Shown in pieces: positions 2,058 through 60,631 of a stretch of 64,000 bases of DNA. This DNA comes from a virus. Every line of letters begins with the position of its first letter. Position 1 is the first letter of the stretch. The position numbers were made by a program, and so were the translations under genes. The notes beneath the pieces are model-generated. The model was not told the DNA's origin, did not search any database, and saw only the letters and a program-made list of their open reading frames with translations. The stretch spans positions 64,001 to 128,000 of the IMG/VR virus record IMGVR_UViG_3300005673_000003; one strand, given 5' to 3'.

Positions 2058-2123
2058 ATTGATTGCCTTCCTTTATCGATTGATTACTACTTGAAAAAAG
2101 GAGCCGAATTGCTCGACTCCTTA

Positions 2124-2168
2124 ACTGTAAGCGCTATTCAAGAAAATGTCAACATCTATCAATCTTTT
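2124..2168 (-). promoter_or_regulatory. Conserved sigma70-type early promoter, copy 1
   Basis: AAAAGATTGATAGATG-TTGACA-17 nt-TACAGT. Confidence 0.8.
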
Positions 2169-2183
2169 GCTGATTAAGTGCCT

Positions 2184-2357
2184 CTATTGAGCTTCTGGCG
2201 GTTGCTCCGGCGGTTGCTCTGATTCTGATTTTTGAGCATTTTGGGAATATCCCAGTAGTTGCCGCTGCTGTTCCATGAGCTGCCTTGCTGCCGTCTGGTC
2301 TTGAGCGGAGCTATTAAAGCGGATAGAAACGGTTCTGCCTCTACGAGATACTTTCAT
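2184..2357 (-). CDS. Small hypothetical protein (57 aa, MKVSRRGRTV...EQPPEQPPEAQ); below the ORF-track cutoff
   Basis: Translated by hand; GGAG RBS supplied by the IS right end. Confidence 0.6.
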   Translation of the reverse strand: MKVSRRGRTVSIRFNSSAQDQTAARQLMEQQRQLLGYSQNAQKSESEQPPEQPPEAQ

Positions 2358-2418
2358 CAAAAATTCTCCGGGACACCCCCATCCTCGCGCAGCAGGTGGG
2401 GGAGGGATAGGAGCGTCA

Positions 2419-3582
2419 TTAAGCGGGGTTCGATGCCCCGTTTAATGACAAGTATTGTGGGCGAGTGACCAGTAACCCCGTTGCGCGGTGGAGTAACTGC
2501 ACTTTAGAAGCCGTAAACTGCCCGATACGCTTCCAATTGAAATCAGACACAGAGACTTGCCGTTCTGTATCTCCACTCACCCACCCGACACTAACCCTGC
2601 CTGCCATTTCCGCTCGTACTAAATCACCCTTCCTGAATCCATGTCGGGTGGTGGTGCCGCCATATTTGCGGCGGACTCCACCCTTTGCCGGAACCATCAG
2701 GTGCAATTGTCTGCGGGAAATGGGCGGGCGGCGAATCACCACAAAGGGGGCGGTTGTGACTCGCACGTCGCCAACCCAATGATGACCACGGGTATTGGCA
2801 GTGTGAAATGATGTATAGCGAACAAACTGACTACAAGCCAGGGCAATCCCGTCAACAGCATGAGTTTCAGGCTTGGCATCACCCTTGCTAGTTTTTTGCT
2901 TTTCCAGATTCAGGTGATTTCTGAGACTGGCAGTTTCCCACCCGTAGAGAGTGGAGGCTGGAGCCAAAGTTGCTAATTGCTCTAGCATCCATTTTTGCCC
3001 CACCATGACCGCACTGAATCCTTTCCCGGAACGGGCGGCTTTGCGGCCAGATGTGAGGTCTACATCGGCCTTAACGTACTCAAAAACAATTTGGCTAATC
3101 GGGAAAACACGACACAATTCTTGTACCGTGCGATATTCCAATTGTCGATTGCTTTTGATGCTGGGCGGGACACCCTTCTGCCGACGATTACTAAATCGCT
3201 TTTGCCGATGAGCGCGTTGATTAAAGGGAAGTTTGCGGTTAATCCGCCTGCCTCTACGTCCACGTCGCATCAGTTTTTGATTGGCTTTGTGTTCCTTTAC
3301 TGTGTCAAATGGCAACAGCAGATGTGCCATGAACAGAGTCGCTTTGGCTGATTGCACAGCAATCCCGCTGTAATGCTTGCCTGGGTCAATGCCAACCACA
3401 ATGGGCTGAGTTTCCTTACCAGAAGGTTCGGCAATCAATTGGACGCAATAGATACCTATGTCATTAAAAAACTCCTTGGCTTTGCCTGTTTTGACCCAAC
3501 GTTTTGCTCTGCTTGCCTTCGTTGGCATCAGGACTTGTCCATCGGGTGCTAGTACGGGAACTCGAACTTGTTGGTTTTCCAT
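2419..3582 (-). CDS. isrB: IsrB RNA-guided nickase (PLMP + RRXRR + split RuvC, no HNH)
   Basis: VLMPTK PLMP motif, VGIDPG Ruv[10 protein letters not shown] bridge helix, FEYV, HAVDG; no HNH/zinc motif. Confidence 0.85.
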
Positions 3583-4357: not shown

Positions 4358-4440
4358 GCTCCCTCTCCGAATACCTTTAATTTCACGATGTACCTACCTT
4401 CGATAATCGATTGATTTTTGCTTTGCCTCTGATTCAATCC

Positions 4441-7400
4441 CTAGTAGTTCACTACATACCCTGACGGCTTTTTATCAATCACGACGATTTTGGTTTTCAC
4501 CCCAGTCCGCCGCTCACTGGAGTTAAACGCTCCATCCTCCACTTCGTAAATAGCCGCGCATCTGCGACTACCCAAATACTCCAGCCATTCTCTAAACTGA
4601 GTTGGTTTAGCCTCCTTTCTGTACGTGAAGTTATTGCACATAATGGCAACCAATCGGCCATCCCATCGCAACATCTCTGTTGCCGCTAGGATGTGATCAA
4701 TATCTCCGAACTCGCCATACTCTTTGCCCCAAGGAGGATTCATGACGATCCGATCGTACTGGCATCGGAAATTTGGATCCTTAGCAGCGGCCAGGGCATC
4801 GTCATGAACCGGATCATAGCCCTTGAATTTAAGGATCTCTCTTAAGCTGGGAGCAATCTCGATGACATCGGGCCATACCCCTGCAAATTTATGAATAGCA
4901 TCTGCGATATGGCCGCTGCCAGCTTCCGGCTCTAGCACCCGATGTCCGGGCTGTATTTGAGCTAGCTTGATAATATATTCAGCCAATTTATCAGGAGTGG
5001 GGAAGTAGCCAGCAGGAGGGCGGCTGATTAATCCATTTTTAAGCTCCCGGATCCGGCGATCGGCTATCTCCTGCTCCGACTCGGATTCGATTAAAGGCTT
5101 GAATAAATTGATTAATTTTTCAAGCTCTTGCATGGAGTTAACCTTGAGCTGCTTGAGGATATTGCGAGACTCGTCATGGCTCGACCAGTGGCGATCGTGA
5201 ATGTTAAAGATGCCAGCATAGTAGCCTTTGTAGTCGCTCCGATGAAATCTATCGACCTGCTTAATCAGCCATTCAACCTGCTTCTTCGTCGAGATATTGA
5301 ACAGCGCCATGTCGGGGACCGTATCGGTTTCATGCATATCTGCCAGTCTATTTAGAGCGGATTGCACTTTCTTCATCGCCCATCCGTCAGCGGCAACAGA
5401 TGCGGCCATTCGAGCTTTTCGGTGAGTATTGGTAGATCTAGGAGCCAGCTTCTGCCGAATGGTATATTCCATGCTTGCGGCTATATCCCGAAACTTGGCT
5501 GCACGCTCCTCGCTAATCCGGCTCAGATTGCCCTGCTTCACAGAAGCGGGTTTCTGCTTCAACGCTTCTATCTGCTCTTTTAATTGATTGATTTCTGATT
5601 CAGCTTCACCAGCATCAACCGAGATATTGACGGTAACGGATTCACCAGCGCTCATCGTTTTAGGTGCGGGAGCAGGCTTAGAAGAGGGCTGATTATCCTT
5701 CCAGGCATCTGCAACCGATTCATGGAAATATCTGAACGCTGCACCCCGAACATTTAGCACGCCAGCCTCCCCATCGGCGTAGAGCATTTCTGGGTTATCA
5801 GAAAACTCATTCACATCAATTTCTTGAAACAGATCTGGCCGCGCTTTGAAAACATCTCTCAACCATTCGGGCTGAATCTCATCAACCCATTCGGCAGGCA
5901 GATTGTAAGGGGTTGCGGGAGGAACTGAGCCATAGCCAAAAATATCCTCATATCTGCACTCCTGGTAGCCGTTGGCAATATTGGATCTTTTTGCGTTAGA
6001 TGCAAATTTAAGAACTTCCTCGGTACTTTCAAAGTGCTGGGAGCTTTTAGTTCCGGTAGTTCCAATCTGACCCCAATGATAAAAAGCTACTCGACGATAC
6101 TCGTCAAGCTTAAAGCCGCAGAATTCACCGGATGAATTTTTGTAGTATTTCCAATCGACAGGATGAGCGGTGGATGCTGGGGAGTTCTCAGGCTCCCCGA
6201 ACAACTTTTTTGCGGGAACCTCCACGTAGCCTTTAGATAGCTTTTCTCGCGCCTTCTCAATAGCGTAGGCAGTGGCTATGTTGATACCGCCCATTGCCTT
6301 AACTTGCCGTTGCCCTGATGTCCCTACCCTGCCCCAATGCAGATGCAGCTCTCTTTCGCCAGCTTTGTAACCCCAGAACTTATGCGAATTCTCGGAAGGG
6401 TTTTCATACTCAAAATAACGCCAGCCAGCTACATCCTCCGCACCGGAAGGCTTGCCGGGATTATGAGCAGGCTTTGCAACCTCGAAAACCGATACAGTCA
6501 TCGATAGCAATTCTTCTCTAGGGAGCCGCGATAAATCCATCGCAAACCCTTCAGTGCCGGGATTATGGGAAGCCTGCCAGGTAGCGACGATTAATTCATC
6601 AATTCCCCGTCTTCCGCTTGTATTGGAGCGATAGGGAGCGAATCCGCACTCAGCCAGCAGTAGATTTAAGTCAGACTTGGGTTTAAGGTTAACGAAATCA
6701 ATCTCGACTTTATCCCCTCTGATATGCGCTGCAACGCCTTCTTGTGGCTTGGGAGGCTCTACTACCTCGACGGGGGTTTCTGGAGCTTCTACCTGCTGTT
6801 TTAGGAGGATGGTAGAAAGATCTGGAATGGGCACAAATTGAGCGGGAGCTTCCTGCTCTTGGGTTTGGGGTGCTGCCGCTGCCTTGGGGCTAAAGAATTC
6901 TTGCTTCAGCAGATTAGCGAATTCGATCGCTGCCGGGGTTGCTTTGGTGTACCAGATATTTTGCCGTCTGGAATAGCTGAATCCGGCACTCTTGACCAGC
7001 TCCAAAATATCATCAGAAGGCTTGCTGGAGAATCGCAACTCGATCCCACCCTTAGCCTCGTTATGCGTGATCTCCATCTCGATTTCCCCAGGAGCGGGAG
7101 ATGCAGTTTGGACTTGAGGTTTATCAGCCTTGTAGAAGCTATGCTGAGCTAAGCATTCGCGAGGAAGCTCATTGGGATATTTCCGATGGCACTCCCAGTA
7201 TTGCCTATGGCCTTCCAGATTTCCAGACTCATAAGAGTAGGAGTAGGATACTTCCCCCTTCCATTCGTGGCGATGCTCTTTCAAGTAAACTTCCGCTTCA
7301 TCGTAGTATTTATAATTTGCCTGCTTAGCAAGCTCTAGACCCTTCTCGTAAGCCTGCTTGGAATAATTGCGATGACAGAATACATAATCAGCTCCCCAGC

Positions 7401-7653: not shown

Positions 7654-7698
7654 AGGAACTCTCTGACGTTAATTGATTGATTGCTACTTACATTTTTA

Positions 7699-10317: not shown

Positions 10318-10357
10318 AACGCCTTACTCCGATAATCGATTGATTTGCTTACTTACT

Positions 10358-10403
10358 AAGGTATGCGATCCACCCTAAAATGTCAACATCTATCAATCTT
10401 TTT
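10358..10403 (-). promoter_or_regulatory. Early promoter copy 3
   Basis: AAAAGATTGATAGATG-TTGACA-17 nt-TACCTT. Confidence 0.75.
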
Positions 10404-10496
10404 ACCTAAAAAGCAGGAAAGCCCGGAGGGGTATACCTTCCGGGCATTGTCTCGTAAGCACAATCAATCATGGAGCGAGACAAACTTGATTCCCGA

Positions 10497-11747: not shown

Positions 11748-11957
11748 AACGCTCTTCTCCGTTAATTGATTGATTGCTGCTTACATTCAATATACTAAGC
11801 CTATATTTACCGTATGGCAAGGGTTTTGGTAAAAATAATTTTGTTGATTGATAGGAGCTTACATTATCAGGGTTTTGCGGGATATTGCATAAAAAAAGAG
11901 GGTGTATCGTGGCACCCTCCATAAATCAATCAATAAGCTGTCGTTATGAAATCCGAT

Positions 11958-12314: not shown

Positions 12315-12353
12315 GGTATTCCCTGAGATGAAGATTTTTAGATTTCTAGAATT

Positions 12354-13052: not shown

Positions 13053-13074
13053 ATTGCCACCTTGATAATCGATT

Positions 13075-13120
13075 GATTTTAGATTTTTAGATTTTGCAAT
13101 TTCTAGATTTCTAGATTTTA
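13075..13120. repeat. 8-bp periodic GATTT(T/C)TA array upstream of parA; candidate centromere
   Basis: Similar arrays at about 12333, 14548, 17617, 42522 and 51622. Confidence 0.6.
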
Positions 13121-14535: not shown

Positions 14536-14623
14536 AACTCCACGTCCTAGAAATCTAAAAATCTAAAAATCTGAAAATAAAGGGGGAAAGCGTTATCCCC
14601 CTCTTAATCAATCAATTCGCAAC

Positions 14624-16003: not shown

Positions 16004-16042
16004 GATTGCCTTCCGCTTACCGATAATTGATTGATTAATCCA

Positions 16043-16090
16043 ATAGTAGCGGCCCACCCCAAAAATGTCAACAACTATCAATCAATTATT
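16043..16090 (-). promoter_or_regulatory. Early promoter copy 4
   Basis: AATTGATTGATAGTTG-TTGACA-17 nt-TACTAT. Confidence 0.75.
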
Positions 16091-16442: not shown

Positions 16443-16462
16443 TTTCCCTCTTAATCAATCAA

Positions 16463-16675
16463 TTATTCATCGAGCCATGCTTTGCATCGCCAAGCAGCGC
16501 TAATGATTGCGTGCCCAAGCTCCGGGCTGGGGGCAGAGTAGACTCTAAAGATTCGCTCCAGCATTGCAAAAACCTGTGAATTTGAGATGGGGAGCGCTGG
16601 CTGGTTAGCGTCCAGGTAGGAGCTAAGGACGATCGTTGAAGCGTAGAAATCAATTTCAGCAGGAGATTGCGGCAT
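16463..16675 (-). CDS. Small hypothetical protein (MPQSPAEIDF...)
   Basis: GAGG RBS before ATG 16675; overlaps the end of the upstream gene. Confidence 0.5.
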   Translation of the reverse strand: MPQSPAEIDFYASTIVLSSYLDANQPALPISNSQVFAMLERIFRVYSAPSPELGHAIISAAWRCKAWLDE

Positions 16676-17590: not shown

Positions 17591-17651
17591 TATTCCTCCA
17601 GCTAATTAATTGATTGATTTTTAGAAATCTAAATTTCCAGATTTCTAATTT

Positions 17652-19064: not shown

Positions 19065-19109
19065 AAACTAAACAACTCCCAAATTGATTGATTATTGCGC
19101 TGAAGGTAG

Positions 19110-19481: not shown

Positions 19482-19519
19482 AATCTAAAACCGCTAACGA
19501 ATAATTGATTGATAGCTCC

Positions 19520-21120: not shown

Positions 21121-21564
21121 ATGAGTAACTTACCTGAAAATCAAGTTCATCTAGAAGCAGGGCATTCGGATTCTAAATTGGCACAATCCGAATCATCGCA
21201 AGCAGAGGAACCTGAGCCGATTACAAAACCCTCACTAGAAGATTTCATGCTCCTCGCGTTAACAGATCTAGAGGGTCTGACCGGAGTTGATTCCTCCGAT
21301 TGGAGTCGCTGGTTCAACGGTGCTTTACTATCGGAGCGCATTTTAATCAAAGCCGCAGAACCCCTTGGATTAACCGCTGGGCAACTTCTAGACTTCATCT
21401 CTCGCAGGCGTGAAGCTACGCTCGGCCTGCGAAAAGCTGGGAGGAAATTCACCCCAAAAGAAATGCAACTGGTAATCAATCGGCAATCAAAAAAGGGCCA
21501 GGGCGGAACAGGAAATTCAGGAGGCAAGTCTAAAGCTTCCAGCCTGGAATCCGTTTGCGCCTAA
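21121..21564 (+). CDS. Cro/CI-type HTH regulator
   Basis: LTDLEGLTGVDSSDWSRWFNG HTH. Confidence 0.6.
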   Translation: MSNLPENQVHLEAGHSDSKLAQSESSQAEEPEPITKPSLEDFMLLALTDLEGLTGVDSSDWSRWFNGALLSERILIKAAEPLGLTAGQLLDFISRRREATLGLRKAGRKFTPKEMQLVINRQSKKGQGGTGNSGGKSKASSLESVCA

Positions 21565-21565
21565 A

Positions 21566-21690
21566 TAAAAATGGGAGGGGTGAACCCCTCCCAGCAATAA
21601 TCAATCAATTAATCGTCGGAAAGGCAGAGCGGAATCAACTTCTACGTAACGAGAAGAAGTTATCAAAGCCCGTCTTTTAGACTCTTAACT
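21566..21690 (-). ncRNA. Candidate antisense small RNA
   Basis: TTGCAA-18 nt-TATAGT promoter (21726-21697); GC hairpin plus U-tract terminator at 21593-21567; carries the complement of the leader motif. Confidence 0.45.
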
Positions 21691-22266
21691 TCCCTCACTA
21701 TATACAAGATCCAGAGAGGCTTGCAACTCGCTCTACGGGCCGCTTGTAGCAAGATCCAATGTCATGATGACAGGTTACGCTGTATAAAATATTGCAAGCT
21801 GTACGGATGCGGCTTGCAAGTAAAGGGCTAGGGGTGGATCAAAAAATAAAAAGAAAGATCCCTTTGCTAAAAATTTGGATCAGGCTACAATCTTGATCGG
21901 TAAAGCCTGGGTGAGCGGCTATCTGGCCTAAAAATTAATCAATTTTTGACCCCCAAATAGCAAATCACCCCCAGAGTTAGCCGCTCTGGAGGTTTTATTA
22001 GTCAAATTTATTTTTCCTAACCATTCAAACAAAAGCACTCAAGGAGAACTTCGATTGAATTTCAGTCGTATGATAACCATCCCTCTCAGGAGGTTTCAGC
22101 TCGTATGATAACACTACGCGCTAGAGATTGCCATAGGGCAGGCAATATTTTTTCTAATGGGAGCAGCCGTTGGTACCAGGGGTATCAGCGGTTTTGTCGT
22201 GCGTTTGCGGCTTTCAATAATCAATCAATAATCAATCAATAATCATCGGAACCGGAGTAGGTTTAT

Positions 22267-24044: not shown

Positions 24045-24095
24045 TTCCCGCAACGATTTCAAGCAATAAATCAATCAATTATTCGGAGAAGTAAC

Positions 24096-25888: not shown

Positions 25889-26518
25889 ATGCTGTACACT
25901 GCTTCTTGGAAAAAGGGAAAAGATTACATTCACGGCCAAGCTTATTCGATCAGCCTAAAGGCTCCTCGAAATCTCGATTTTCCGATTGAGCACTTAGATT
26001 TTTTTAAGCCCACTCAAGGACTGCTGGATTTCTGGTATCAATCAGATAAATCCGAGCAGGCATGGCAGGAATACGAATCCCGATATTGGAAGCTAATCTT
26101 AGCTCCAGAGCGGAAAAATCCAATCATGTCCTGGCTCAATAGTTTGCCGCCGCAAAAAGATTGTACGCTCTGCTGTTTTGAGGTTAGTAATCGCTACTGT
26201 CACCGACGCTTAGTAGAGCTAATCATCAGAAAATATCGGCCAGAGCTATGGGTGGGTGACAGTATCCGCGCTACTCTGGAGATTGGCGATAGGGTAGAGC
26301 ATAAACTGTTGCCTCAGAAAGGGATTGGAACCGTTCTTGACCGGATGGCAACATTAGCTTATGTAATCTGGGATGATCTACCTCTTGGGGCTGTTCGCTC
26401 GGTTGTTCATCCAGTTAAAAGTGGGAATTACTACAACCAGATAGGCAATCCGTTACCCTACCCAGGCAACCTTTTGCGGCGAATCGAGGAAAGCAATAAT
26501 CAATCGATTAAAGGATAG
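25889..26518 (+). CDS. DUF488-family protein
   Basis: LYTAS...TLCCFE....CHRRLV. Confidence 0.7.
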   Translation: MLYTASWKKGKDYIHGQAYSISLKAPRNLDFPIEHLDFFKPTQGLLDFWYQSDKSEQAWQEYESRYWKLILAPERKNPIMSWLNSLPPQKDCTLCCFEVSNRYCHRRLVELIIRKYRPELWVGDSIRATLEIGDRVEHKLLPQKGIGTVLDRMATLAYVIWDDLPLGAVRSVVHPVKSGNYYNQIGNPLPYPGNLLRRIEESNNQSIKG

Positions 26519-36602: not shown

Positions 36603-36656
36603 TCCGCCTTCTCCTTGATGGTTAATTGATTGATTAGTGGGTTGCTGGGGAGAGGC

Positions 36657-39874: not shown

Positions 39875-39913
39875 AAAAGATTGGATCCATTAATAATTAA
39901 TTGATTACCAGGA

Positions 39914-41125: not shown

Positions 41126-41166
41126 AGGTCTTCACTCCGAAAATCGATTGATTATTGCTTAATCCA

Positions 41167-42058: not shown

Positions 42059-42087
42059 GATTGCTCTCCGATTAATTGATTGATTTT

Positions 42088-43893
42088 CTAGAATGCCAAG
42101 CTACCAGCTTTTCGCATATTGTCAACCTCTCGAATCCGCTGCTTCAAGTCGTATATCTTTGCTGCTAGCTCATCGTCTCCATTTTCAATCCATTGGGCCT
42201 GTAGCTCCTCAAGCTCTGCCTGCAGCCCTACCTTTTCAAGCTGGCAGATGCAGAGCAGGACAAGCGGCATTGCTGATTCGATATTCTCAGCCTCGGCATC
42301 CGGCATCAGCTCTTTGGGGCATCCCTTCTCCTGGATTGCTAGCCATTGGGCAAATAGATTTGAGCTGCCCTGAGCTTCTATCTCCAGGATTTGCTCCCAA
42401 TCCCCTGCCCTGGCTGTAAATCCAACCTGATACCCTTCGAGCATGGATCGAAACTCTTCCCGAATATCAGGGCAATGCAGGTAAACCTGAAGCAGCTTCA
42501 ATTCCGCTTTTTCTAAATGTCCAGATTTCTGAATTTTTAGATTTTTAGATTTCTGTCTATTCCCCCTTAAGTGATTGGATAAATCCTCTTCTAATCGCCT
42601 GACCAGTGCGGGTTTACCGCGCCCCAGTTTTTCAGCGCACCTCCTCAAGGCATTGGAGCGATTGGCAGCATCTGGCAGGGATTTAAGAAGCTCCACCGTA
42701 TCGCGACTGGCTTGCTGGAAGCTCGACACATCATCCAAGTCTTTGTCGCTGATAATCCGGCCCAGCTTCCAATCAAACCAGGATTGAGCTTCCATGATTA
42801 GCTGCTGAAGCTCCTCGATTGGATGCTGGGATAGAAATTCGTCGGGATCTTTCCCTGCAAGCGTCAGCACGCTCACCGATACCTGTCCAGCCTGAATCAG
42901 GGGGGAAGCTTCGGTCAGTACCCTGCCTACCGCTCCCTGCCCTGCCTTGTCGCTATCAAAGAGCAGTAGGAATCTCTTGGAGGTAGTATGCCGAATCGCT
43001 TGCCGGATATGCCCGATAGACAGGGAGGTACCCATCGAAGCAACTACATTTTTGACTCCGGCCCGGTGCATTGCTATGACATCAAACTGGCCTTCGGTAA
43101 AAATCACTTGCTCAGCTTTGGCGATCGCCTCCACTGCCCGATGCATTCCAAATAAGTATCTCCCTTTCTGAAAAATCTCTGTCTCCGCGCTATGCAAGTA
43201 CTTCGGGCTATCTTCTGGCGTGATAGCTCTGCCGCTGAACCCCACTACTCGGCTATGCTCATCAAGCAGTGGGATAATCAATCGATTCCTGAAAAAGTCG
43301 AATGCTCTCCCATCCTTACTGGATGCCAGGGATGCTTTTTGCAGCAACTCCAATGAAAAGCCTTTCTGCTTCAGGTGGTCAAGCAACCCCTGCCAGCTCT
43401 TAGGAGCAAACCCCAGCCGCCACTCGCTTATCTCCTTGATGTTGGTTTTTCTCGACATCAAGTATTGCCAGGACGGGGAATTGTTAGCCTGCTCCCGTCG
43501 CAACTGCATCTGGAACCAGATACAAGCTGCTTCATTCATCTCGAATAACCGTTTTTGGAGGAGCAGCTTTTCCTTCAGCGCTTGCTCATCCTCTGCATCC
43601 TGCAACCGGATCTCAATCTGGTATCTTTCAGCCAGGTGCAGAACTGCATCGGCAAAGCTCATCCGGTTAGTGTCTTGGATAAACCGGAGGGCATCGCCAC
43701 CCTTGCCGCATCCATGGCAGTAATAGTAATTCTTCGCTGGATTGACGGTGAATGATGGGGTGCGCTCCTCATGGAACGGGCATAGCCCCTTATGCTCCCT
43801 TCCAGCTTTCTTGAGTACAACCTGTTCCTGGACGATTTCCAGAAGCTCTGCACGCTCCCGAATTTCCGTTAAAGTCTGCTCTGCGAAACGCAT
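42088..43893 (-). CDS. dnaG: DNA primase
   Basis: CHC2 zinc finger CPFH...CHGC, TOPRIM EGQFD / FDSD.AG, KDPDE. Confidence 0.95.
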   Translation of the reverse strand: MRFAEQTLTEIRERAELLEIVQEQVVLKKAGREHKGLCPFHEERTPSFTVNPAKNYYYCHGCGKGGDALRFIQDTNRMSFADAVLHLAERYQIEIRLQDAEDEQALKEKLLLQKRLFEMNEAACIWFQMQLRREQANNSPSWQYLMSRKTNIKEISEWRLGFAPKSWQGLLDHLKQKGFSLELLQKASLASSKDGRAFDFFRNRLIIPLLDEHSRVVGFSGRAITPEDSPKYLHSAETEIFQKGRYLFGMHRAVEAIAKAEQVIFTEGQFDVIAMHRAGVKNVVASMGTSLSIGHIRQAIRHTTSKRFLLLFDSDKAGQGAVGRVLTEASPLIQAGQVSVSVLTLAGKDPDEFLSQHPIEELQQLIMEAQSWFDWKLGRIISDKDLDDVSSFQQASRDTVELLKSLPDAANRSNALRRCAEKLGRGKPALVRRLEEDLSNHLRGNRQKSKNLKIQKSGHLEKAELKLLQVYLHCPDIREEFRSMLEGYQVGFTARAGDWEQILEIEAQGSSNLFAQWLAIQEKGCPKELMPDAEAENIESAMPLVLLCICQLEKVGLQAELEELQAQWIENGDDELAAKIYDLKQRIREVDNMRKAGSLAF

Positions 43894-43927
43894 TTATCCA
43901 TACCGATCGATTGATTGCTTACCCTAT

Positions 43928-43972: not shown

Positions 43973-44000
43973 ATGATTTACTGCCAATAATCGATTGATT

Positions 44001-46061: not shown

Positions 46062-46084
46062 ATTGCCTACTGGAAATCGATTGA

Positions 46085-46738
46085 TTATTGACTTCGGATA
46101 ACTCCAAGCTCCATCCCATCCAAGCTTAGCGCTTCTATCTTCTTAAGTTTCCACCCTCTTGAGGTAGACTTAAAGCCAAATGAAACGCCAGCCGATACCG
46201 GATGAAGTAAGCTACGAGCGGCTACGTATCGCGGCCAGCGATTCCCCCCACCTGGCCCAACAGGAACCATGTACAAGCTTTGATTCTCTGCCAGGATTGG
46301 ATAGATTCTATTCCCGCGATAATCGCTAAGAGTCGCGATATAGAGCTTTTCACCCCAGAATAAATGCCTGGAAATTGCCGTTCTCATGAGCTTATTTAGC
46401 TCATCAGTTAAAGCTTCTTCTTCCCCAGGAGAAAACGTTTTCTGCGGATCTAGTTGAATTTCTAATCCACTGCAAATCACTTCGATTTTGCTATCTGCAA
46501 TTAACTGCACCTGCACAGAAAAGGGGAACTGATGCCCCTTGAATAATCGATTGATAAATGATTTGCAATCCCCTAAAGTTCCGGTTTTTACAGCTTTCGC
46601 CGCAAACCCTTCTCTAGTTTTATACTTGCGTATTGGGATCTTCACCATGTAAACGGTTTTATCGCCTCTAAAATCCTGATGGATGCTTAAGAAACGATGC
46701 TCCTGGACATAATAAATGATGTCCGTCTTGCTAATCAC
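46085..46738 (-). CDS. Hypothetical early protein
   Basis: Follows promoter copy 8. Confidence 0.55.
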   Translation of the reverse strand: MISKTDIIYYVQEHRFLSIHQDFRGDKTVYMVKIPIRKYKTREGFAAKAVKTGTLGDCKSFINRLFKGHQFPFSVQVQLIADSKIEVICSGLEIQLDPQKTFSPGEEEALTDELNKLMRTAISRHLFWGEKLYIATLSDYRGNRIYPILAENQSLYMVPVGPGGGNRWPRYVAARSLLHPVSAGVSFGFKSTSRGWKLKKIEALSLDGMELGVIRSQ

Positions 46739-46767
46739 GAGAGTTAACCGATTGATTATTTAGCCTA

Positions 46768-48081: not shown

Positions 48082-48094
48082 TAATCAATCAATT

Positions 48095-49189: not shown

Positions 49190-49209
49190 AAACCTCGATA
49201 ATTGATTGA

Positions 49210-51621
49210 TTAAAATATCCCACCGTCCAGTACTCCTCCTCCTGAGCCTCCCCCTCCTGCCACCTCGATCGCAGTTACCCGACTATCAAGCGCGGTGATA
49301 TTTCCAGTTGCTCCGACCATCTGAGCCAAGAGAAACTGAATCTGCCCTGGAATCGGGAAAATCTGTTGCAATGCAAAATCATTGAGGTACACGCCGTTAT
49401 CCTGGACATGCAAGCCCCAATCCCCAGAAGCGCTTCTGATTGATGTCTCGCCGGAAATTGCAGTCTGAGCAGCGGATACGTTAATCCTGCTTCCGCTAGC
49501 CTGGACGCTTGATAGAGCGGTCTGCCCAGTCTTATCGAACCCTTGCAGGAGCGCCCCCAGTTTCGGATCTAAGGTCAATCCACCAGATCCCTTGCCGATA
49601 ACTTGCATCACCATCTTGCCGAGGGATTTCATCAAGCCACCATCTTTGCCAAAATCAAAACCCCCATAAGGACTCTGAGCACCAACTCCTTTCTCTGTTG
49701 CATACACTCGATGTTTGCCGAGCTTGGCACGCAATTCGCTTGTGAATTTATCAACCTGCACTTTCGCTCTAGCAATCTGCTCACCAATTGAATTCACAAA
49801 TTTAGTCAACTGCTTTTGAGCATCCCCCAACATCTGCCCGAACTGCTGAGTCAGCCCGGAGAACATCTGCGAGAGCATCTGCGATGGATTGCCAGTCAGG
49901 GAGCCAAGGCCGCTTAAACCAGGCAAACTGGTGATACCGGAGAGCATCTGTGAGAGGTTGCTAAATTGCCCTTTAGCGATCGCATCGGTTAATTTCTGCA
50001 TATCCGGCAAGGCATTGCTAAATGGCAACGCTTTTGTCAGGCTGCTGATTGTCTGCCCATTGAACCCCTTCGCAATACTGCCCAGCATTCCAGTGATGCC
50101 AGCTTCAAAATCTCCCCCATTAACCAATCCCTTGATCAGCGACGGGGAAATGAATCCCTGTAATTCTTTAGGGAGCGTGCCAAGTATTTGAGCGGGAATA
50201 TCCTGCAATCGTTGCTGTTGCTGCTCTAATTGCTGAGCGATTGGCAGCGTCTGCGATGGCAGCAGTGGGGCCGTACCTTCCAGAATTGACTTAGCCTCAT
50301 CGAACAGATTGGAGATTGGCTCTACCTTATCTGCAATCCCCAGAGCAGACAGATTCTTGAAGCTATCGTAGCCCTCTGGCAGCGCTTTGCTCAAGATAAA
50401 CTCTGCCTGCAAATCCAGTGAGTGACCCAAGCCTTTTAGTACATTTATATTTGCTGCCGATTCTTCAATGGGTTGAGTAAGTACATCAGAAGCGCTTAAA
50501 AAGCGATTGATTTCTGATAAGGAGGGTTTCTGTGCCAGAATCTCTTGCAGCGCTGGCAGGAGCGCCCCTATACCGCTGGCTACGCTTGCCTCTACCTGAT
50601 CAAATAAAGTTTGCCCCAGGTCAGCGATTGGCTGTTTCTGAATCTCCTTTAATACGTTTATACCAGTTTGCAAAGTAGAGCCAATCCCGTTGCTTAGCTG
50701 CCCCAGGAACTCGCTTGCACTGGTAGCTAGCTCCGCTAAGCTCTCCTGATTAGCTGTACTACTCCCTGTACTACTCCCCAGATTTCCCAGAAGCGTACTT
50801 GATAACCCCAGATTTTTAAGCAGCTCTTGAGCTTGTCCAAGCTGCCCTCCCAGAAGCTTTTTAGCCTGGTTTTTTAATCCGGTCAGCTCCGGTGCTGGCC
50901 CCAGCAGTTCAGACGTACCAGGCTCAAGTTTTAGCTCATTTTTGGAGGCTTCCGCTCGGAGGTAAGCGCGGCCATCGGCGGTTAGAATCTGAGTTGCATC
51001 GCCTGCAGAGCGTTGGGTAATCTGCCCGTCCTTACTTTGGACGATTGAGGATTTGCTATTTTCTACCCGATTGGTGCCATCTTGTTGCAGATGATTCCTG
51101 GCTCCCCCTTGGGTCTGGTCGATTTTATCTCCGGTGCGAGTTACTTGGCTGGTGACTCCATGCGGGAAGGCATGGGTTTCCTCGGTATTGCGATCGTCTT
51201 TGATTTTGAATATCTGGCCCGGTGATTGGGTACCATGCACCTCGATACTCCGGTCAAAGATGGGGTTAGGTTTATCTACTCTGCTATGTAAGGCTCCCAG
51301 CATAAGCATATATTTCGGGTTGCCAAACATGGGCAGTAAGGCAACCTGGCTCCCTGGCTGGAGGTAGCGATGCGCTCCCCCTTCCTTGCCATTGCAAACG
51401 TACTCCTCCAGCACCCATACCATGCCGTCCCAAGAGTTCGGCAAAGTCTGATTTATTGCCAGTAAATCGCACTGCACTTTAACTCGCCCCAAGCCTTCTG
51501 GATCATCCGATGACTCGATTCGATTCAAAATCGCAGGCACCCAGCCGCTTATAAGTCCCTGCTGAGCTTGGGGAGTATGCGCTTCTGGTAAATCTGGCCT
51601 GACAAGTTTCTCGAACGACAT
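49210..51621 (-). CDS. Baseplate spike (gp5/gpV/VgrG OB-fold) with long helical insertion
   Basis: DDPEGLGRVKV...PGSQV..L...G.P. Confidence 0.7.
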   Translation of the reverse strand: MSFEKLVRPDLPEAHTPQAQQGLISGWVPAILNRIESSDDPEGLGRVKVQCDLLAINQTLPNSWDGMVWVLEEYVCNGKEGGAHRYLQPGSQVALLPMFGNPKYMLMLGALHSRVDKPNPIFDRSIEVHGTQSPGQIFKIKDDRNTEETHAFPHGVTSQVTRTGDKIDQTQGGARNHLQQDGTNRVENSKSSIVQSKDGQITQRSAGDATQILTADGRAYLRAEASKNELKLEPGTSELLGPAPELTGLKNQAKKLLGGQLGQAQELLKNLGLSSTLLGNLGSSTGSSTANQESLAELATSASEFLGQLSNGIGSTLQTGINVLKEIQKQPIADLGQTLFDQVEASVASGIGALLPALQEILAQKPSLSEINRFLSASDVLTQPIEESAANINVLKGLGHSLDLQAEFILSKALPEGYDSFKNLSALGIADKVEPISNLFDEAKSILEGTAPLLPSQTLPIAQQLEQQQQRLQDIPAQILGTLPKELQGFISPSLIKGLVNGGDFEAGITGMLGSIAKGFNGQTISSLTKALPFSNALPDMQKLTDAIAKGQFSNLSQMLSGITSLPGLSGLGSLTGNPSQMLSQMFSGLTQQFGQMLGDAQKQLTKFVNSIGEQIARAKVQVDKFTSELRAKLGKHRVYATEKGVGAQSPYGGFDFGKDGGLMKSLGKMVMQVIGKGSGGLTLDPKLGALLQGFDKTGQTALSSVQASGSRINVSAAQTAISGETSIRSASGDWGLHVQDNGVYLNDFALQQIFPIPGQIQFLLAQMVGATGNITALDSRVTAIEVAGGGGSGGGVLDGGIF

Positions 51622-51643
51622 AGAATTTTAGAATTCTAAATTT

Positions 51644-52111: not shown

Positions 52112-52140
52112 ACCTACCTCTAAAATCGATTGATTATTGA

Positions 52141-53334: not shown

Positions 53335-53348
53335 AAATTGATTGATTA

Positions 53349-55470: not shown

Positions 55471-55557
55471 TGCTGGCTGATAATTGATTGGATTATTACT
55501 GGGGCGCGGGTTATGCCCCTACTGCTAGACTTTAGCGATCGCTGATCTTTAAGTATC

Positions 55558-55706: not shown

Positions 55707-55733
55707 AAATCAATCAATTATCGGAGAAGCGCA

Positions 55734-56501
55734 ATGATTACCGTTACCAATAACTACCCCAAGGATCTGAAAGCCGCTATCGCTCATGAATTGTTCACCC
55801 CCAACGCTAAGCCTAAGAAAGCCGATCTAATTGCGGCTATCGAAGATTACAACGCTAAGCAATTAGAGGGTAGAGATGCCATCTCTACCGAGCCTGAAGC
55901 CGTTGCAGTTGCCAGCGAAGCGACTGAGCAAGTAACCGAGCTTGCCATCCCTGCAGTTATCGATCAGAATTTGAAAAAGGTGCTGGAACCCGATGTTCTT
56001 GAGTCTACCGAATCTGAAAAGCAATTAAATGATGAAATGGCTGCGTTCTTGAACAAGAAGCATGAAGAAGCTTATGGGGATGCAAAGCCAAAAGCAAAGG
56101 CTAAAAAGAGTGCTCCCAAAAAAGAATGGAGTACTCAGGATGATGAAATTCTAAGAAAGGCTTGCGAAGCTGGCAAAGCAGATAGATTTAATCGGGCAAA
56201 ATTTATCCTTGAATTAGTAGAAAGAGGTCAATCGATTAAAGAGATCGCATCAAGAATGGGTTTATCTACGAGTAAGGTTCAGCGTGAATCTAAAGCAATG
56301 CAAGTCTACAATCTAAGCCAGATCGTCAAGCAACTCTACGCAGATCAACAGTTATCCTGGGCAGCAATTCATGATGAGCTTGCGATTAAATCCATCAAAG
56401 ATACAAGCGTCGAGCAGTTTGATAAATTAGCCGCTGAAGTAGCAGGACGCAGGAAGCGTAAATCTAAACTAAATCAATCTAATGAGATTCAATCTGCCTA
56501 G
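55734..56501 (+). CDS. ParB/KorB-type HTH protein lacking the ParB N-terminal domain
   Basis: GQSIKEIASRMGLSTSKVQR...L...VKQL....LSW; start after leader motif and GGAG. Confidence 0.6.
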   Translation: MITVTNNYPKDLKAAIAHELFTPNAKPKKADLIAAIEDYNAKQLEGRDAISTEPEAVAVASEATEQVTELAIPAVIDQNLKKVLEPDVLESTESEKQLNDEMAAFLNKKHEEAYGDAKPKAKAKKSAPKKEWSTQDDEILRKACEAGKADRFNRAKFILELVERGQSIKEIASRMGLSTSKVQRESKAMQVYNLSQIVKQLYADQQLSWAAIHDELAIKSIKDTSVEQFDKLAAEVAGRRKRKSKLNQSNEIQSA

Positions 56502-56898: not shown

Positions 56899-56913
56899 AA
56901 GTAACGACTCCAG

Positions 56914-57738
56914 TTAATTTCCACGAGGATACCCGATAAACTCTTTGGCTATCCTCGCAATGACCTGACCCCATGCGATCGCTGGATTCTCGTCAAGCTC
57001 CCCCTCTTGCTGCACCAGCTCGTAAGCTTGCTTGATTAACTCCATATCCTCATGAGACGCTTTGAAGAATACCGATACATGATCACCAGACTCTTCAAAG
57101 CGCTCCCCATGCTGGCCTTGCTGCCCCTGAAAGGTGCTTTGGATGCCGCTCCCCTGAGAACCCCCAGAAGCGTACTGCTCTCCTCCTCCCCCTGCCGCCG
57201 CTGTCGCTTCATTGCGGCGTTGCTGATTCGCCTGGTGGTCGCTGTAAGCATCCTGGAAGGAGCCGCTACTGCCGTAATTATCCCAATCCGCTTCTGATAG
57301 CTTGATCAGCTCGTTTAGCTCATTCTCGGTGTAGGGTACCGCCTTAATCGTATCCACTCCCATATCTTGCTGAATATCGGCCAGCAGCTTTGCTAGGTCG
57401 ATTTTATCCATCTCGCCTCGGGTGCTGTCCAGCACTACCGTCAGCTTCTTTGCTTCAGCGTCGGATAAGTCGTGGATGATATTGACGTAAATCACCTCCT
57501 CATCCTGCATCTCCTTCCAGCGATGCTCCCCATTAATGATCTGATATACCTCCTGTTTTTCGGGGTGGGGCCGCACCAGGATTTCCTCTACCTGCCCAAC
57601 CCAATCCAGCGACTCTCGTAGAGCCTCCTGGGTGCGCTCTTTCATTCGATTGGGATTCCAATCATTCGGCTCCAATTGACTGGGATGCAACGGAACCGCT
57701 CTCTCGATTTTGTACAAAGATGACAACATGATTTCCAC
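56914..57738 (-). CDS. ParB/Srx N-terminal-domain protein associated with dpdA
   Basis: PNDWNPN...ILVR...IINGEHRW. Confidence 0.85.
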   Translation of the reverse strand: MEIMLSSLYKIERAVPLHPSQLEPNDWNPNRMKERTQEALRESLDWVGQVEEILVRPHPEKQEVYQIINGEHRWKEMQDEEVIYVNIIHDLSDAEAKKLTVVLDSTRGEMDKIDLAKLLADIQQDMGVDTIKAVPYTENELNELIKLSEADWDNYGSSGSFQDAYSDHQANQQRRNEATAAAGGGGEQYASGGSQGSGIQSTFQGQQGQHGERFEESGDHVSVFFKASHEDMELIKQAYELVQQEGELDENPAIAWGQVIARIAKEFIGYPRGN

Positions 57739-57785
57739 CTATCTCCTATCTCGATTAATTGATTGATTTTCTGATGCGCTAGAAG

Positions 57786-58919
57786 TTACCAGCTAATGCC
57801 TCTAGCTGCCCACAGCTTAGTAGATTCTTCCTCAAGCTTTTTATATTTGCGGATAGCGGCTCGAAGTACATGAATGTTTGCGGCCATAGCCGCATCAGAT
57901 TCTTTGTAGCGAGGAATATTTTTTATCCCGGCAACATCTCCACCACCAAACCGAAGGCTAGAAACCCAGCTACTTGAATCAGAGGAATAGCAAGGGTAAC
58001 GCTTGAGCACCCATTCAGTAGTTACGCCTAACAAGTGAATCTTAGGCATCTTGCCAGTCTTCTTGTAATAACTCATGACGATATGGAAGCAGCTATCTAG
58101 CCAAGCCTGTAGCAACTTCTTATTCCTCGTATAGGGCACCAGTCCGCCTAATGCGACGTAATCGTAGCCGCTAAGGGTATGGTGGAGATGCCGCAGATCT
58201 ACCCCGAAAGTGACAATAGGGAGCGGCCTCATTCCCAGGCTTTCTAGAATCGATTGATTATTCCAACTGGCATCTTGATCTCCAATTACGTCGAGATTCA
58301 TAAAATGGAGCGCTGCCATCTTACTTCTCCGGCGCTTATCGAAATCAAGCGCCCATTCCGCATACTCTTGCGGCGTTATGGTTTTTCCGGTTGACCATGC
58401 AGTGAACGCGCCAGAGTCGATGATCACCCTCGGTCTAAGGTCAACAAGGTTGCTGATAGCAGCGATCGTATCGGTTACTTCCTTTCGGTCGGCATAGGTT
58501 GCTAAATGATTGTCATGCTCTGGCTTGATTTGCTTTTCCATCTCTTTTTCCATCTCTGGAGTGGCAGAATGCCCAGCGATATGGATATTCATGGGAGTAT
58601 GCCATGAATCACGCCATTGCTCCTCTTGCTCTTGGTAGGCATAGCTAAATAAATTTTCTGTCTTTCCCTCTTCTGGAAGCAGTTCCTTAACCGATCTCTG
58701 GCCGCTCAATCTTGCTATTGTATCTGTAAGGTGAATTCGCATTGCTTTCTGGTGTAACCTTGCTAATTCATTCCATAGCTCTGCCCATTTCTTCTCATAG
58801 CCTGCATGGGCAAAGCTGAGCAAAGATCCGGTTGCAAGCTCCTCAGCAAGAAGGACTCTGGAATTCCTGCCATCCGGCAATGTATCACTGGCTCCCGCCC
58901 ATACAAAATGCACCTTCAT
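57786..58919 (-). CDS. dpdA: DpdA-like 7-deazaguanine DNA transglycosylase, copy B, with three tandem N-terminal modules
   Basis: IIDSGAF, NLDVIG, ALGGLV, IHLLG, SSDSSSW; start at MKVHF. Confidence 0.8.
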   Translation of the reverse strand: MKVHFVWAGASDTLPDGRNSRVLLAEELATGSLLSFAHAGYEKKWAELWNELARLHQKAMRIHLTDTIARLSGQRSVKELLPEEGKTENLFSYAYQEQEEQWRDSWHTPMNIHIAGHSATPEMEKEMEKQIKPEHDNHLATYADRKEVTDTIAAISNLVDLRPRVIIDSGAFTAWSTGKTITPQEYAEWALDFDKRRRSKMAALHFMNLDVIGDQDASWNNQSILESLGMRPLPIVTFGVDLRHLHHTLSGYDYVALGGLVPYTRNKKLLQAWLDSCFHIVMSYYKKTGKMPKIHLLGVTTEWVLKRYPCYSSDSSSWVSSLRFGGGDVAGIKNIPRYKESDAAMAANIHVLRAAIRKYKKLEEESTKLWAARGISW

Positions 58920-58926
58920 ACAGCGA

Positions 58927-59746
58927 TCACCAGCTAATCCCCCTGCCTGCCCACAGCTTGGTTGCCTCCTCTTCCATCCGCTTATATTTGCGGATAGCCG
59001 CTCGAAGGACATGGATGTTTGCAGCCAGGGCAGCATCGCTTTCCTTGTACCTGGGAACCTGCTGAATCCCTGCAATATCACCGCGCCCAAACCGCAAGCT
59101 GGCAACCCATGAACTCGAATCAGAGGAGAAGCAGGGATAGCGTTTCATCGCCCAATCGCTGGTTATCCCCAGCAGATGCACCTTGGGCATTTTGCCAGTC
59201 TTGCGATATTGGGCCATGACAATTTGGAAGCAGTGATCTAGCCAAGCCTGTAGCAACTTCCGGTTGCCAGAATGGGGCACCAGTCCGCCCAGTGCGACGT
59301 AATCATAATTTTCAATCGCTCTTTGCAGATGGATAATATCCGCGCCAAAAGTAATGATCGGGATGGGTCGCATCCCTAGCCCTTCTAAAATTGATTGATT
59401 AATCCATGAAGCATCTTGATCTCCAATCACATCCAGGTTCATGAAGTGAAGCGAGTCCATCCGGTGCCGCCAGCGGCTATCAAAATCCTTTGCCCACTCA
59501 GCGTACTCTTTAGGGTCAACTGCCTTGCCAAGCGTGAATGCCGTGAACGCTCCAGAGTCAATGATTACTCTGGGTCTGATGCCTTGCTGTTGCAGGACGG
59601 GTTTGTAGGCTGGCTCCTCATTTTTGTAGGCATAGCTCATGTTTGTAGGCATAGCTCATGAGATGGTTCGAGGTTGATTCGAGTAAAAGGATTTGCTGCT
59701 GAATCCGGCTATTACCAGATGGATTCGCCGCGATATAGATATTCAT
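58927..59746 (-). pseudogene. dpdA: DpdA-like copy A, frameshifted by a 19-bp tandem duplication (catalytic core 58927-59640 intact)
   Basis: ATG 59746 gives MNIYIAAN...NHLMSYAYK; removing one repeat unit gives an 801-bp ORF. Confidence 0.75.
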
Positions 59747-60456
59747 TAAGCGGTCACTGGCTGCAATTCCCGATGCTTCCAGATTGGGTCAGGAACGCCC
59801 GCCTCTTGGAAGCCTCTATCTCTTAGCAAGCAGGCCGCACATTTACCGCAACCCCCTTTAACGCCTTGATAGCAGGTATGAGTCAGCTTCATGATTGACT
59901 CAAATTTATCTCCCATCACCTCCATTGCTAGGTGGACTGATTGAGCCTTGGTGAGGCTCATTAACGGAGTTTCGATAATGAATTTCCCAGGCTCTCCAAA
60001 ATTGGCAAGGCTTAAAGCATCCTGAAGCGCATCAATAAATACTCTGCGGCAATCTGGATAGCCAGAATAATCCGTCTCGCATACACCAGTAAACAATGTA
60101 TCAATCCCTCGCACGATCGCTCGATTGGATGCAATCGTAAGGAACAAAGCATTTCTGGATGGTACAAAGGTGCTGGCTATACCATCCGGTACATCCCCAG
60201 GAGCAGAATATTCTGGCACCTGATTATCAGAAACCAGCGGCGAGGTTCCTTTAAGCACTTTCCCCAGCTCGATAACTTCATGGGATTCAACGCCCATAAT
60301 CTTGCCTATCTGCACTGCAGATTCAATCTCGATTGAATGCTTTTGGCCGTAATCGAATGTGACGCAGTGTACTTTATCGAAAACCTGCTTAGCAACCGCC
60401 AAACAGGTTGTAGAGTCCTGACCGCCGCTAAGAATAACCAAACATTGATTAGACAT
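59746..60456 (-). CDS. queC: 7-cyano-7-deazaguanine synthase
   Basis: SGGQDS, FDYGQKH, VPSRN, SGYPDCR, TCY...CGKCAAC. Confidence 0.96.
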   Translation of the reverse strand: MSNQCLVILSGGQDSTTCLAVAKQVFDKVHCVTFDYGQKHSIEIESAVQIGKIMGVESHEVIELGKVLKGTSPLVSDNQVPEYSAPGDVPDGIASTFVPSRNALFLTIASNRAIVRGIDTLFTGVCETDYSGYPDCRRVFIDALQDALSLANFGEPGKFIIETPLMSLTKAQSVHLAMEVMGDKFESIMKLTHTCYQGVKGGCGKCAACLLRDRGFQEAGVPDPIWKHRELQPVTA

Positions 60457-60631
60457 TATTCCTTCCTTGATAGGGTTTGCAGATTTCGTTCCAGACTCTC
60501 TCGTAAGCTATCTCGTACTCTCTGTAAGCAAAACTCATCAGGTAATTGGCCCATAACTCTTGAGTCATCACCTGTCCGGTAAAAATTGATTGATGACTGC
60601 GATCGTTAGGCTGGCTAAGGTGGATTTGCAT
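60449..60631 (-). CDS. Free-standing DpdA N-terminal module peptide (60 aa)
   Basis: MQIHLS...NYLMSFAYREYE...W, homologous to module 2 of DpdA-B. Confidence 0.65.
   Translation of the reverse strand: MQIHLSQPNDRSHQSIFTGQVMTQELWANYLMSFAYREYEIAYERVWNEICKPYQGRNNV

Follow-up and report, generated by a model that had tools for sequence, protein, structure and literature searches.

An oriented 12-letter word stands before one gene in three of a large cyanophage and may be a stoperator-like operator

The phage record and its commonest 12-mer

We analysed a stretch of 64,000 nucleotides (nt; hereafter the window) that corresponds to bases 64,001–128,000 of the complete, 148,728-bp virus record IMGVR_UViG_3300005673_000003, which has direct terminal repeats, and describe a 12-letter word, AATCAATCRATT (equivalent to AATCAATC(A/G)ATT), that recurs before its genes. 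Our own gene calls gave 171 genes (87.5% of the genome coding after start refinement), about 71 of them in the window. Judging by the cyanobacterial palindrome GCGATCGC, which occurs 68 times in the record, and by the relatives of the portal protein, the record is a large tailed phage of filamentous cyanobacteria. The portal protein (38552–39874, minus strand) has its best match, at 58% identity, in a prophage-like region of Timaviella obliquedivisa and in Leptolyngbyaceae metagenome-assembled genomes; a portal search of viral contigs gave no close relatives, and an alignment-based search gave only relatives of at most 58% identity. The phage encodes the replication proteins DnaB and DnaG and a tape-measure-like open reading frame (ORF) of 4,282 aa, whose homologue in a relative (L037) has a Pfam tail tape-measure domain.

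Copies of the word were counted as exact matches or with at most one mismatch, with the expected number and 100 shuffles as controls. The window holds 38 exact copies compared with 0.02 expected, a count reached by none of the shuffles, and 58 copies with at most one mismatch compared with 1.5 expected. The whole record contains 103 exact copies, and the word is by far the commonest 12-mer of the genome; the reversed word, used as a control, is absent. The initial annotation had reported more than 30 copies by eye, and all 24 coordinates that it listed were recovered within 1–2 nt, with one mismatch each at 2074, 19503, 22219/22230 (tandem), 43905 and 60584. Enrichment was confirmed over background and also over genomes of the likely host order, 57 of which contained 288 copies in 341 Mb, i.e. 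0.84 per Mb compared with 692 per Mb in the phage (ca. 820-fold); this rules out a host-wide signal. Scans of IMG/VR with a 17-mer and with the word followed by N2–6 and GGAG returned single chance matches only, among the matches listed. The copies are spaced slightly more evenly than random (coefficient of variation 0.79 vs 0.98), and the largest gap is not below random.

Position 9 of the word, proposed at the outset as the main variable position, is A in 71 and G in 32 of the 103 exact genome copies, and rarer transitions occur at positions 4, 5 and 8. Variation is limited to these four positions, which form two pyrimidine-purine (YR) steps (AAT-YR-AT-YR-ATT). Changes from A to G are almost never found at positions 1, 2, 6 and 10, where G-U pairing would also survive, which leaves the original argument that the A/G alternation reflects pairing to a U weak. 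G-U wobble pairing with one antisense RNA would be consistent with this variation, which two YR steps in a fixed DNA site fit equally well.

Placement relative to genes and strand

Of the window copies with at most one mismatch, 27 lie in sense orientation 7–36 nt before a start codon and serve 25 of the ca. 71 genes (35%), while the others are 16 sense copies and one antisense copy in ORFs, two inverted copies just before a start and 12 other intergenic copies. Genome-wide, 56 of the 171 genes (33%) have a sense copy at most 40 nt upstream. The claim that the word precedes most genes was therefore overstated. Among genes with an upstream gap of 25–100 nt, about 60% are preceded by the word; it is missing before all 30 genes that overlap a neighbour.

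The end of the word lies a median of 16 nt (interquartile range 14–18) from the start codon, on the 5' side of a GGAG Shine-Dalgarno (SD) sequence from which it is mostly separated by 3–5 nt. The extended consensus reads caat-AATCAATCAATT-atc-GGAG-(6-9 nt)-ATG, and SD sequences are somewhat stronger in genes with the motif. Within same-strand gaps of 25–200 nt, 79% of copies are found 10–21 nt from the start compared with 26% under uniform placement (0 of 5000 simulations), and the stop-to-word distance absorbs the variation in gap length (r = 0.85). As the anchoring at 10–21 nt holds while the stop-to-word distance varies, the tie to the start is real and not an artefact of short gaps. Non-coding DNA, 12.5% of the genome, holds 66 of the 103 exact copies (coding DNA holds 37), and 75 of 88 intergenic copies (85%) are in sense orientation (p = 5e-12), so that the earlier description of the word as mostly intergenic and sense, with a positional and a strand bias, holds. 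The word precedes the genes for DnaB, primase, portal, baseplate J, ParA and MoxR/VWA and is, as first suggested, a genome-wide, strand-oriented cis-element common to early, replication and structural genes. It is a real, strong and phage-private control signal.

Promoters and the word

Ten near-identical strong promoters of the form AAAAGATTGATAGATGTTGACATTTT-N17-TAnnnT (the ATTGATAGATGTTGACA family) drive early and replication genes. At eight of the ten, the word follows 5–16 nt after the -10 element, always on the transcribed side, and most 'ATGTAAGC' promoters are likewise followed by the word at this distance and on this side. A second group of promoters (TTGCCA or similar, N17, a CATAAT-like element, then ATGTAAGCAGC) runs directly into the word. 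The word is therefore never the sigma-70 promoter itself, and at these promoters it is always transcribed, sometimes from +1. Besides following host-type promoters, it is also found between cistrons. Abutting the -35 element is an untranscribed box, ATTGATAGAT, that resembles the inverted word (ATTGATTGAT) without matching it fully; the likeness to the early-promoter box that had been pointed out is thus real, but holds for the inverted orientation. Homology between copies of the promoter cassette stops at the 3' edge of the 12-mer. The early-promoter 21-mer had three chance matches, in AT-rich DNA, among metagenome contigs.

Copies outside leaders

About 45% of the copies with at most one mismatch do not fit a pure leader role, being located in ORFs, inverted or upstream of promoters (Table 1). 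Genome-wide, 49 such copies are ORF-internal (41 sense, 8 antisense), about a third of all copies, and they are as exact as the intergenic ones, given the 37 exact matches in coding sequence. Avoidance of stop codons alone predicts a sense bias of 2.25:1 in ORFs (frame count, both variants), and the observed bias is mildly higher (p = 0.017). The ORF-internal copies occur in all three frames and encode NQSI, INQ(L/F) or SIN; the same positions in homologues from a 97-kb provirus relative (G001, loci L046–L050) usually hold other residues or alignment gaps, so these sites are indel-prone and lineage-specific. One tape-measure copy (peptide INQLF) is common to this phage and its relatives. The eight copies within the 12.8-kb tape-measure gene form three paralogous groups, and four 'NQSII' copies keep all 12 bases amid surrounding repeats of about 73% nucleotide identity; the target of selection is therefore the nucleotide sequence.

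Inverted intergenic copies number about 13 genome-wide, two of which fill stop-to-start gaps. Three of the 13 lie directly 5' of intrinsic terminators on the gene strand, compared with one of 75 sense copies (p = 0.01). Inverted copies 0–9 nt before terminators were found at 11924, 14606 and 21599 of the window and at genome positions 17548 and 53220 (21599 and 53220 by eye). The copy at 14606..14617 is the exact complement of the leader copy of the same gene (14624–16003), and owing to the copies before terminators the transcription units from 16036 to 14606 and from 13078 to 11924 have complementary 5' and 3' ends. A few sense copies stand just past a stop codon and upstream of a promoter (43989 and 8595 in the window, genome position 134134).

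Table 1. Word copies and associated features (window positions unless stated otherwise)
Feature	Position	Strand	Context
Leader copy AATCAATCGATA, 1 mismatch	2074..2085	-	16 nt before gene 1764-2057; downstream of early promoter and hairpin
Leader copy	7671..7682	-	17 nt before 1070-aa LPD29/WGR gene 4441-7653; after early promoter
Leader copy	10334..10345	-	16 nt before VWA gene 8650-10317; 12 nt after early-promoter -10
Leader copy	11764..11775	-	16 nt before MoxR AAA+ gene 10497-11747; after TTGCCA-17-TAGTAT promoter and ATGTAAGCAGC stretch
Leader copy	13067..13078	-	14 nt before ParA-like gene 12354-13052; preceded by AAATCTAR array
Leader copy	16025..16036	-	21 nt before gene 14624-16003; begins 6 nt after early-promoter -10, at about +1 of the transcript
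Two overlapping leader copies AATCAATCAATTAATT	17604..17619	-	Before gene 17105-17590
Leader copy	19082..19093	-	17 nt before gene 18681-19064
Leader copy TATCAATCAATT	19503..19514	-	21 nt before gene 19110-19481; 5 nt after early-promoter -10
Tandem copies, 11-bp period, AATAATCAATC x2.7	22215..22248	+	Leader of first replication-operon gene 22267-22614
Leader copy	24069..24080	+	15 nt before DnaB helicase gene 24096-25490
Leader copy	26498..26509	+	15 nt before gene 26525-27400; overlaps 3' end of preceding ORF
Leader copy	36624..36635	-	21 nt before 360-aa structural gene 35520-36602
Leader copy AATCAATTAATT	39895..39906	-	20 nt before portal gene 38552-39874
Leader copy	41142..41153	-	16 nt before gene 40436-41125; after early promoter
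Leader copy	42074..42085	-	15 nt before gene 41699-42058
Leader copy AATCAATCGATC	43905..43916	-	11 nt before DnaG primase gene 42088-43893; after early promoter
Leader copy	46075..46086	-	13 nt before gene 45519-46061
Leader copy AATCAATCGGTT	46746..46757	-	Before gene 46085-46738; after early promoter
Leader copy	49200..49211	-	13 nt before gene 48095-49186
Leader copy	52124..52135	-	12 nt before gene 51644-52111; preceded by CAATAAT heptads
Second copy by 52124 leader	52096-52107		Just inside ORF 51644-52111
Leader copy	53336..53347	-	13 nt before baseplate-J-like gene 52141-53322
Leader copy	55708..55719	+	14 nt before lone plus-strand gene 55734-56501; orientation matches gene, not minus-strand block
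Leader copy	57757..57768	-	Before ParB_N (DpdB-like) gene 56914-57729
Leader copy CATCAATCAATT	60584..60595	-	15 nt before mini-gene 60449-60568
Early promoter AAAAGATTGATAGATGTTGACATTTT-N17-TAnnnT, example	16043..16087	-	Upstream box matches the inverted word imperfectly; position 16066 in the promoter family
Other AAAAGATTGATAGATGTTGACATTTT-family promoters	near 2147, 7723, 10381, 19543, 41191, 43951, 46791; genome position 134095
ORF-internal sense copy	5582..5593	-	Encodes EINQL in 1070-aa protein
Other ORF-internal copies (starts)	5106, 7862, 12564, 13678, 29174, 30862, 34435, 35165, 37966, 46545, 50501, 53681, 58248
Copy, probably ORF-internal	59389		Inside DpdA paralogue; intergenic by one gene call
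Antisense ORF-internal copy, G variant	43276..43287	+	In primase gene; only such copy in the window
Inverted copy, gene strand UAUUGAUUGAUU	11924..11935	+	1 nt before terminator ending ParA-RHH operon
Inverted copy, gene strand AAUUGAUUGAUU	14606..14617	+	Between stop of gene 14624-16003 and its terminator
Inverted copy	16453..16464	+	10 nt before start of minus-strand gene 16197-16442
Inverted copy	48083..48094	+	Fills 13-nt gap from stop of 48095-49186 to start of 46816-48081
Sense copy, not leader	43989..44000	-	Directly after upstream stop codon, about 22 nt upstream of early-promoter box
Candidate anti-leader RNA (predicted only)	21563..21695	-	Weak promoter TTGCAA-18-TATAGT, 5' hairpin, single-stranded anti-motif, strong terminator
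AAATCTAR repeats	12332-12352, 13081-13117, 14552-14572, 17631-17643, 42531-42551, 51638-51650		Around ParA-RHH operon and elsewhere in the window

A sister word in related phages

The relatives that share 58% portal identity carry a palindromic sister word, AATCAATTGATT, and the word thus depends on the lineage. The provirus relative has 13 matches to AATYRATYRATT and about 35 with one mismatch; its copies are mostly the perfect palindrome AATCAATTGATT or AATTAATTGATT, often with AG...CT flanks or a following T run (TTTT). About 30% of them are intergenic and about 70% lie in ORFs, with five or six directly before an ATG, sometimes without an SD sequence. Small phage-like contigs of a Leptolyngbyaceae genome (L051–L055) contain up to 6 sister-word copies in 4.9 kb. 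Such a change of the word with phage lineage would be expected of a site and a phage-encoded reader that co-evolve, and the older form of the word looks like the binding site of a symmetric DNA-binding protein.

Other genes and features of the phage

Upstream of the first replication gene, a 650-bp non-coding gap (21565-22266) separates a weak helix-turn-helix (HTH)-like gene from the replication operon. Within it are several hairpins, a pair of 20-bp direct repeats (GGTTATCATACGA(G)CTGAAA, near 22060-22115) and the 11-bp motif tandem at 22215-22248, and it may serve as an origin or a control region. The gene of a ParA-like Walker ATPase of 232 aa precedes one for a small protein (118 aa) that has a ribbon-helix-helix (RHH) domain at its C-terminus (11958-13052, minus strand); the two resemble a type Ib partition pair. 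A second dispersed repeat, AAATCTAR, forms arrays of 8-bp period (11 matches vs 0.85 expected), which are a possible centromere or operator for the RHH protein. No tyrosine integrase was detected in the phage, which together with the ParA-like/RHH pair suggests a plasmid prophage; as the closest relative, of 97 kb, is moreover classed as a provirus, lysogeny is plausible.

Genes for a MoxR-type AAA+ ATPase and a VWA-domain protein form a pair (8650-11747, minus strand) beside that for a 1070-aa protein with LPD29 and WGR domains (4441-7653, minus strand), and each of the three has an early promoter and the word upstream. A 7-deazaguanine DNA-modification set comprises FolE with an intein, QueC, a TGT/DpdA-type protein and a ParB_N protein that we read as DpdB-like, not as a partition protein or KorB-type regulator, because it adjoins DpdA. 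The intein that splits the FolE (GTP cyclohydrolase I) gene (60824-62491, minus strand) has a LAGLIDADG domain. Further genes encode several DNA methylases and IscB and TnpB elements; a link between the word and IscB/TnpB target sites was rejected, as there was no sign of the word at the element's end. A HEARO (IscB guide) RNA (155 bits; L066 757-991, minus strand) adjoins the IscB gene just right of the window; Rfam and tRNA scans of the phage found this RNA alone, and no tRNA genes anywhere.

Discussion

Our preferred but tentative interpretation, which we rate as possible and somewhat short of probable, is that the word is a polar, stoperator-like operator on double-stranded DNA, putatively read by a phage-encoded repressor. 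That the factor reading the word is encoded by the phage, rather than the word being a host signal, is the best explanation of its distribution; we further infer that this reader is a protein, that it reads DNA, that its binding represses and that the phage is temperate. The repressor would bind the word and block host RNA polymerase arriving from phage sigma-70-type promoters or by read-through from upstream, which would keep the 149-kb genome silent in the prophage state, probably as a plasmid. Sites downstream of promoters and of upstream cistrons, right before the ribosome-binding site, would be the most useful and the least costly to proteins, and additional copies would occupy tolerant spots within long genes. 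We prefer a DNA site because it explains leader, ORF-internal, inverted and promoter-upstream copies, the promoter box and the palindromic relatives alike. The ORF-internal, inverted and promoter-upstream copies make sense for a DNA site and not for a translation signal, and a palindromic sister word located mostly in ORFs would be the signature of a co-evolving DNA-binding protein site. The anchoring takes an extra assumption, namely that a polar block placed after the promoter and before the gene would amount to the short leader in a compact genome.

Among known systems, the closest are the stoperators of Cluster A mycobacteriophages. In phage L5, an operator is accompanied by 24 stoperators, asymmetric 13-bp sites that mostly lie between genes and point along transcription (PMC5712189, PMC9283540), and some Cluster A phages are parABS plasmid prophages (PMC5712189, PMC9283540, PMC6550527). 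Like the sites of the L5 gp71 and TipsytheTRex repressors, the word is short (12 bp here, 13 bp there) and asymmetric, has many copies throughout the genome that mostly occupy short gaps between genes and follow the direction of transcription, is absent from the host, and varies in consensus between related phages. Unlike those ca. 24–30 stoperators, it has about 100 copies, a fixed distance to start and SD and about a third of its copies in ORFs; it lies 5–16 nt downstream of -10 elements without overlapping promoter hexamers, and the host is a cyanobacterium. The word appears by analogy to work most like stoperators and may belong to that family. The SAS of Cluster K mycobacteriophages, whose function is still untested (PMC3203893, PMC12699233), is also an asymmetric, single-orientation, phage-private word immediately upstream of the starts of many unrelated genes. 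It contains the SD core AGGAG, lies 3–7 bp from the start, has 11–19 copies confined to the non-structural arm and almost never occurs in ORFs, whereas the word described here is G-poor, lies 5' of a separate SD sequence 10–21 nt from the start, and is spread genome-wide and often within ORFs. It thus lacks four defining features of SAS: the SD core, the start distance, the confinement to one arm and the rarity in ORFs. Dispersed asymmetric operators of C1, 22 in number, are known from the plasmid prophage P1 (PMC8546580). These 17-bp sites share their dispersal and asymmetry with the word and control a large number of the operons of this sizeable plasmid prophage. They are located at promoters and not before one gene in three, and ORF-internal copies are not known to reach the density seen in our phage. 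The palindrome of the relatives resembles the dyad repeats of 17 bp in Cluster O mycobacteriophages, which are dispersed in more than 30 copies, roughly a third or more of them within coding sequence, and have no known function (PMC4351075); unlike these, the word in this phage is asymmetric and oriented.

Several observations weigh against a repressor-bound operator. The start anchoring (79% within 10–21 nt) and the 3–5-nt spacing to the SD sequence are predicted directly by a role in mRNA, and a DNA roadblock accounts for them only indirectly. No copy overlaps a -35 or -10 hexamer, whereas the true operator of L5 overlaps its promoter. In 51 natural leaders the predicted unpaired probability of the word is 0.65, compared with 0.57 after shuffling of the flanks (p = 1e-4). 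No repressor candidate was found, the only match being a weak HTH at 21121-21564; this HTH-like protein was rejected as the reader, having no PDB relative and a poor structure model (pLDDT 53), and the RHH protein was likewise set aside, the AAATCTAR arrays that surround its own operon being its more plausible partner. The ParB_N protein, being DpdB-like, does not count as a partition protein. Finally, with about 100 sites the network would be three to four times larger than any characterised one. The word may resemble WATCAANNNNTTR, the consensus of IHF/HU-type architectural sites; the phage has no match to PF00216 (HU/IHF).

The alternatives concern RNA or other uses of the DNA, and the four agents considered in the initial annotation (a small RNA, an RNA-binding protein, a DNA-binding protein, a recombination site) have been narrowed rather than decided between. 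The word might be an mRNA leader element, i.e. a G-free, unstructured word in the 5' untranslated region that acts as a ribosome standby site or enhancer or is bound by a phage RNA-binding protein, which in one variant marks phage messages for translation or shields them from RNases such as RNase E. Its anchoring whatever the length of the gap, its place just 5' of GGAG and on the transcribed side of promoters, its strong sense bias and the somewhat stronger SD sequences of motif genes all favour this, and no other part of the predicted leader RNA is as open as the word. The accessibility supports a predicted open ribosome-binding region around the leader copies and is without bearing on whether the word itself is read as RNA. 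We consider a leader element unlikely nonetheless, since it leaves aside the ca. 45% of copies found elsewhere, of which the internal ones are exact and yet show no accessibility effect (33 sense copies), as well as the promoter box and the relatives' palindrome, which lies mostly in ORFs. Twelve near-fixed bases (about 22 bits from position counts) far exceed what a generic AU-rich enhancer needs, and the host makes no use of the word. Pairing with 16S rRNA was rejected, as the longest paired run with four 16S sequences of the host family was 8 (G-U counted), equal to the mean of shuffled words. Pfam scans of the phage turned up no ribosomal or known RNA-binding protein gene, nor one for RNA polymerase or sigma.

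The inverted copies suggest a different use of RNA, in which anti-leader RNAs carrying AAUUGAUUGAUU just 5' of a terminator would pair with more than 50 leaders beside the SD sequence and switch translation or stability. Their sources would be the candidate RNA 21695-21563 (minus strand), whose locus has a plus-strand copy of the word at 21599-21610, as well as the operon 3' ends at 11924 and 14606. Consistent with this are the enrichment of inverted copies before terminators, with the same layout by eye at 21599 and genome position 53220, the predicted fold of the candidate (5' hairpin, single-stranded anti-motif, terminator; z = -2.5) and the common variants at positions 4, 5, 8 and 9, all of which keep G-U pairing; an antisense RNA repressor of P1, c4, is said to be a precedent. 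The candidate is predicted only, its promoter match is weak (9/12), A-to-G changes are not tolerated at positions 2, 6 and 10 though pairing would survive, and neither the ORF-internal copies nor the relatives' palindrome is explained, so that we regard pairing by such RNAs as improbable. An equally doubtful form of the idea is a genome-wide RNA switch in which anti-leader RNAs or 5'-3' panhandles time or gate the translation of a third of the genes. Still less credence goes to a middle or late promoter, whether for a sigma-like factor of the phage or for a phage RNA polymerase that escaped recognition, with the T4 late TATAAATA box and T7-type promoters as models. A phage-private, strand-specific, conserved word close upstream of genes, including structural genes without visible sigma-70 promoters, would suit such a promoter, but transcription starting downstream of a word 3–5 nt from the SD sequence would cut off or barely include the latter, the word follows strong sigma-70-type promoters at eight of ten early genes, eight copies lie in one 12.8-kb gene, and the Pfam scans detected neither an RNA polymerase nor a sigma domain. 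Most improbable of those named is a recombination linker, with the word as microhomology for the shuffling of gene or promoter cassettes. Deletions are known to arise through stoperators and through Cluster O repeats (PMC5712189, PMC4351075), and the end of promoter-cassette homology at the word's 3' edge fits the idea. It does not hold beyond these cassettes, as internal repeats such as the tape-measure modules and DpdA paralogues neither begin nor end at the word; four metagenome DNA runs contained one strain in a single unrearranged form, 12 bp is short for homologous exchange, and SD anchoring and strand bias are not predicted. The remaining probability belongs to something not yet thought of.

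Whichever way it is read, the word combines a SAS-like anchoring to gene starts with a stoperator-like spread that is genome-wide, oriented with transcription and partly ORF-internal. No characterised network is as dense as this one, with a site about every 1.4 kb and before one gene in three, and dispersed oriented words are known from mycobacteriophages and P1, with nothing comparable for a cyanophage found in literature searches. Identifying the reader would show whether such 'gene-start words' act on DNA or on RNA, and how one signal governs the whole genome of a large phage that infects filamentous cyanobacteria. The word and its reader could serve as a compact orthogonal control part in cyanobacterial engineering.

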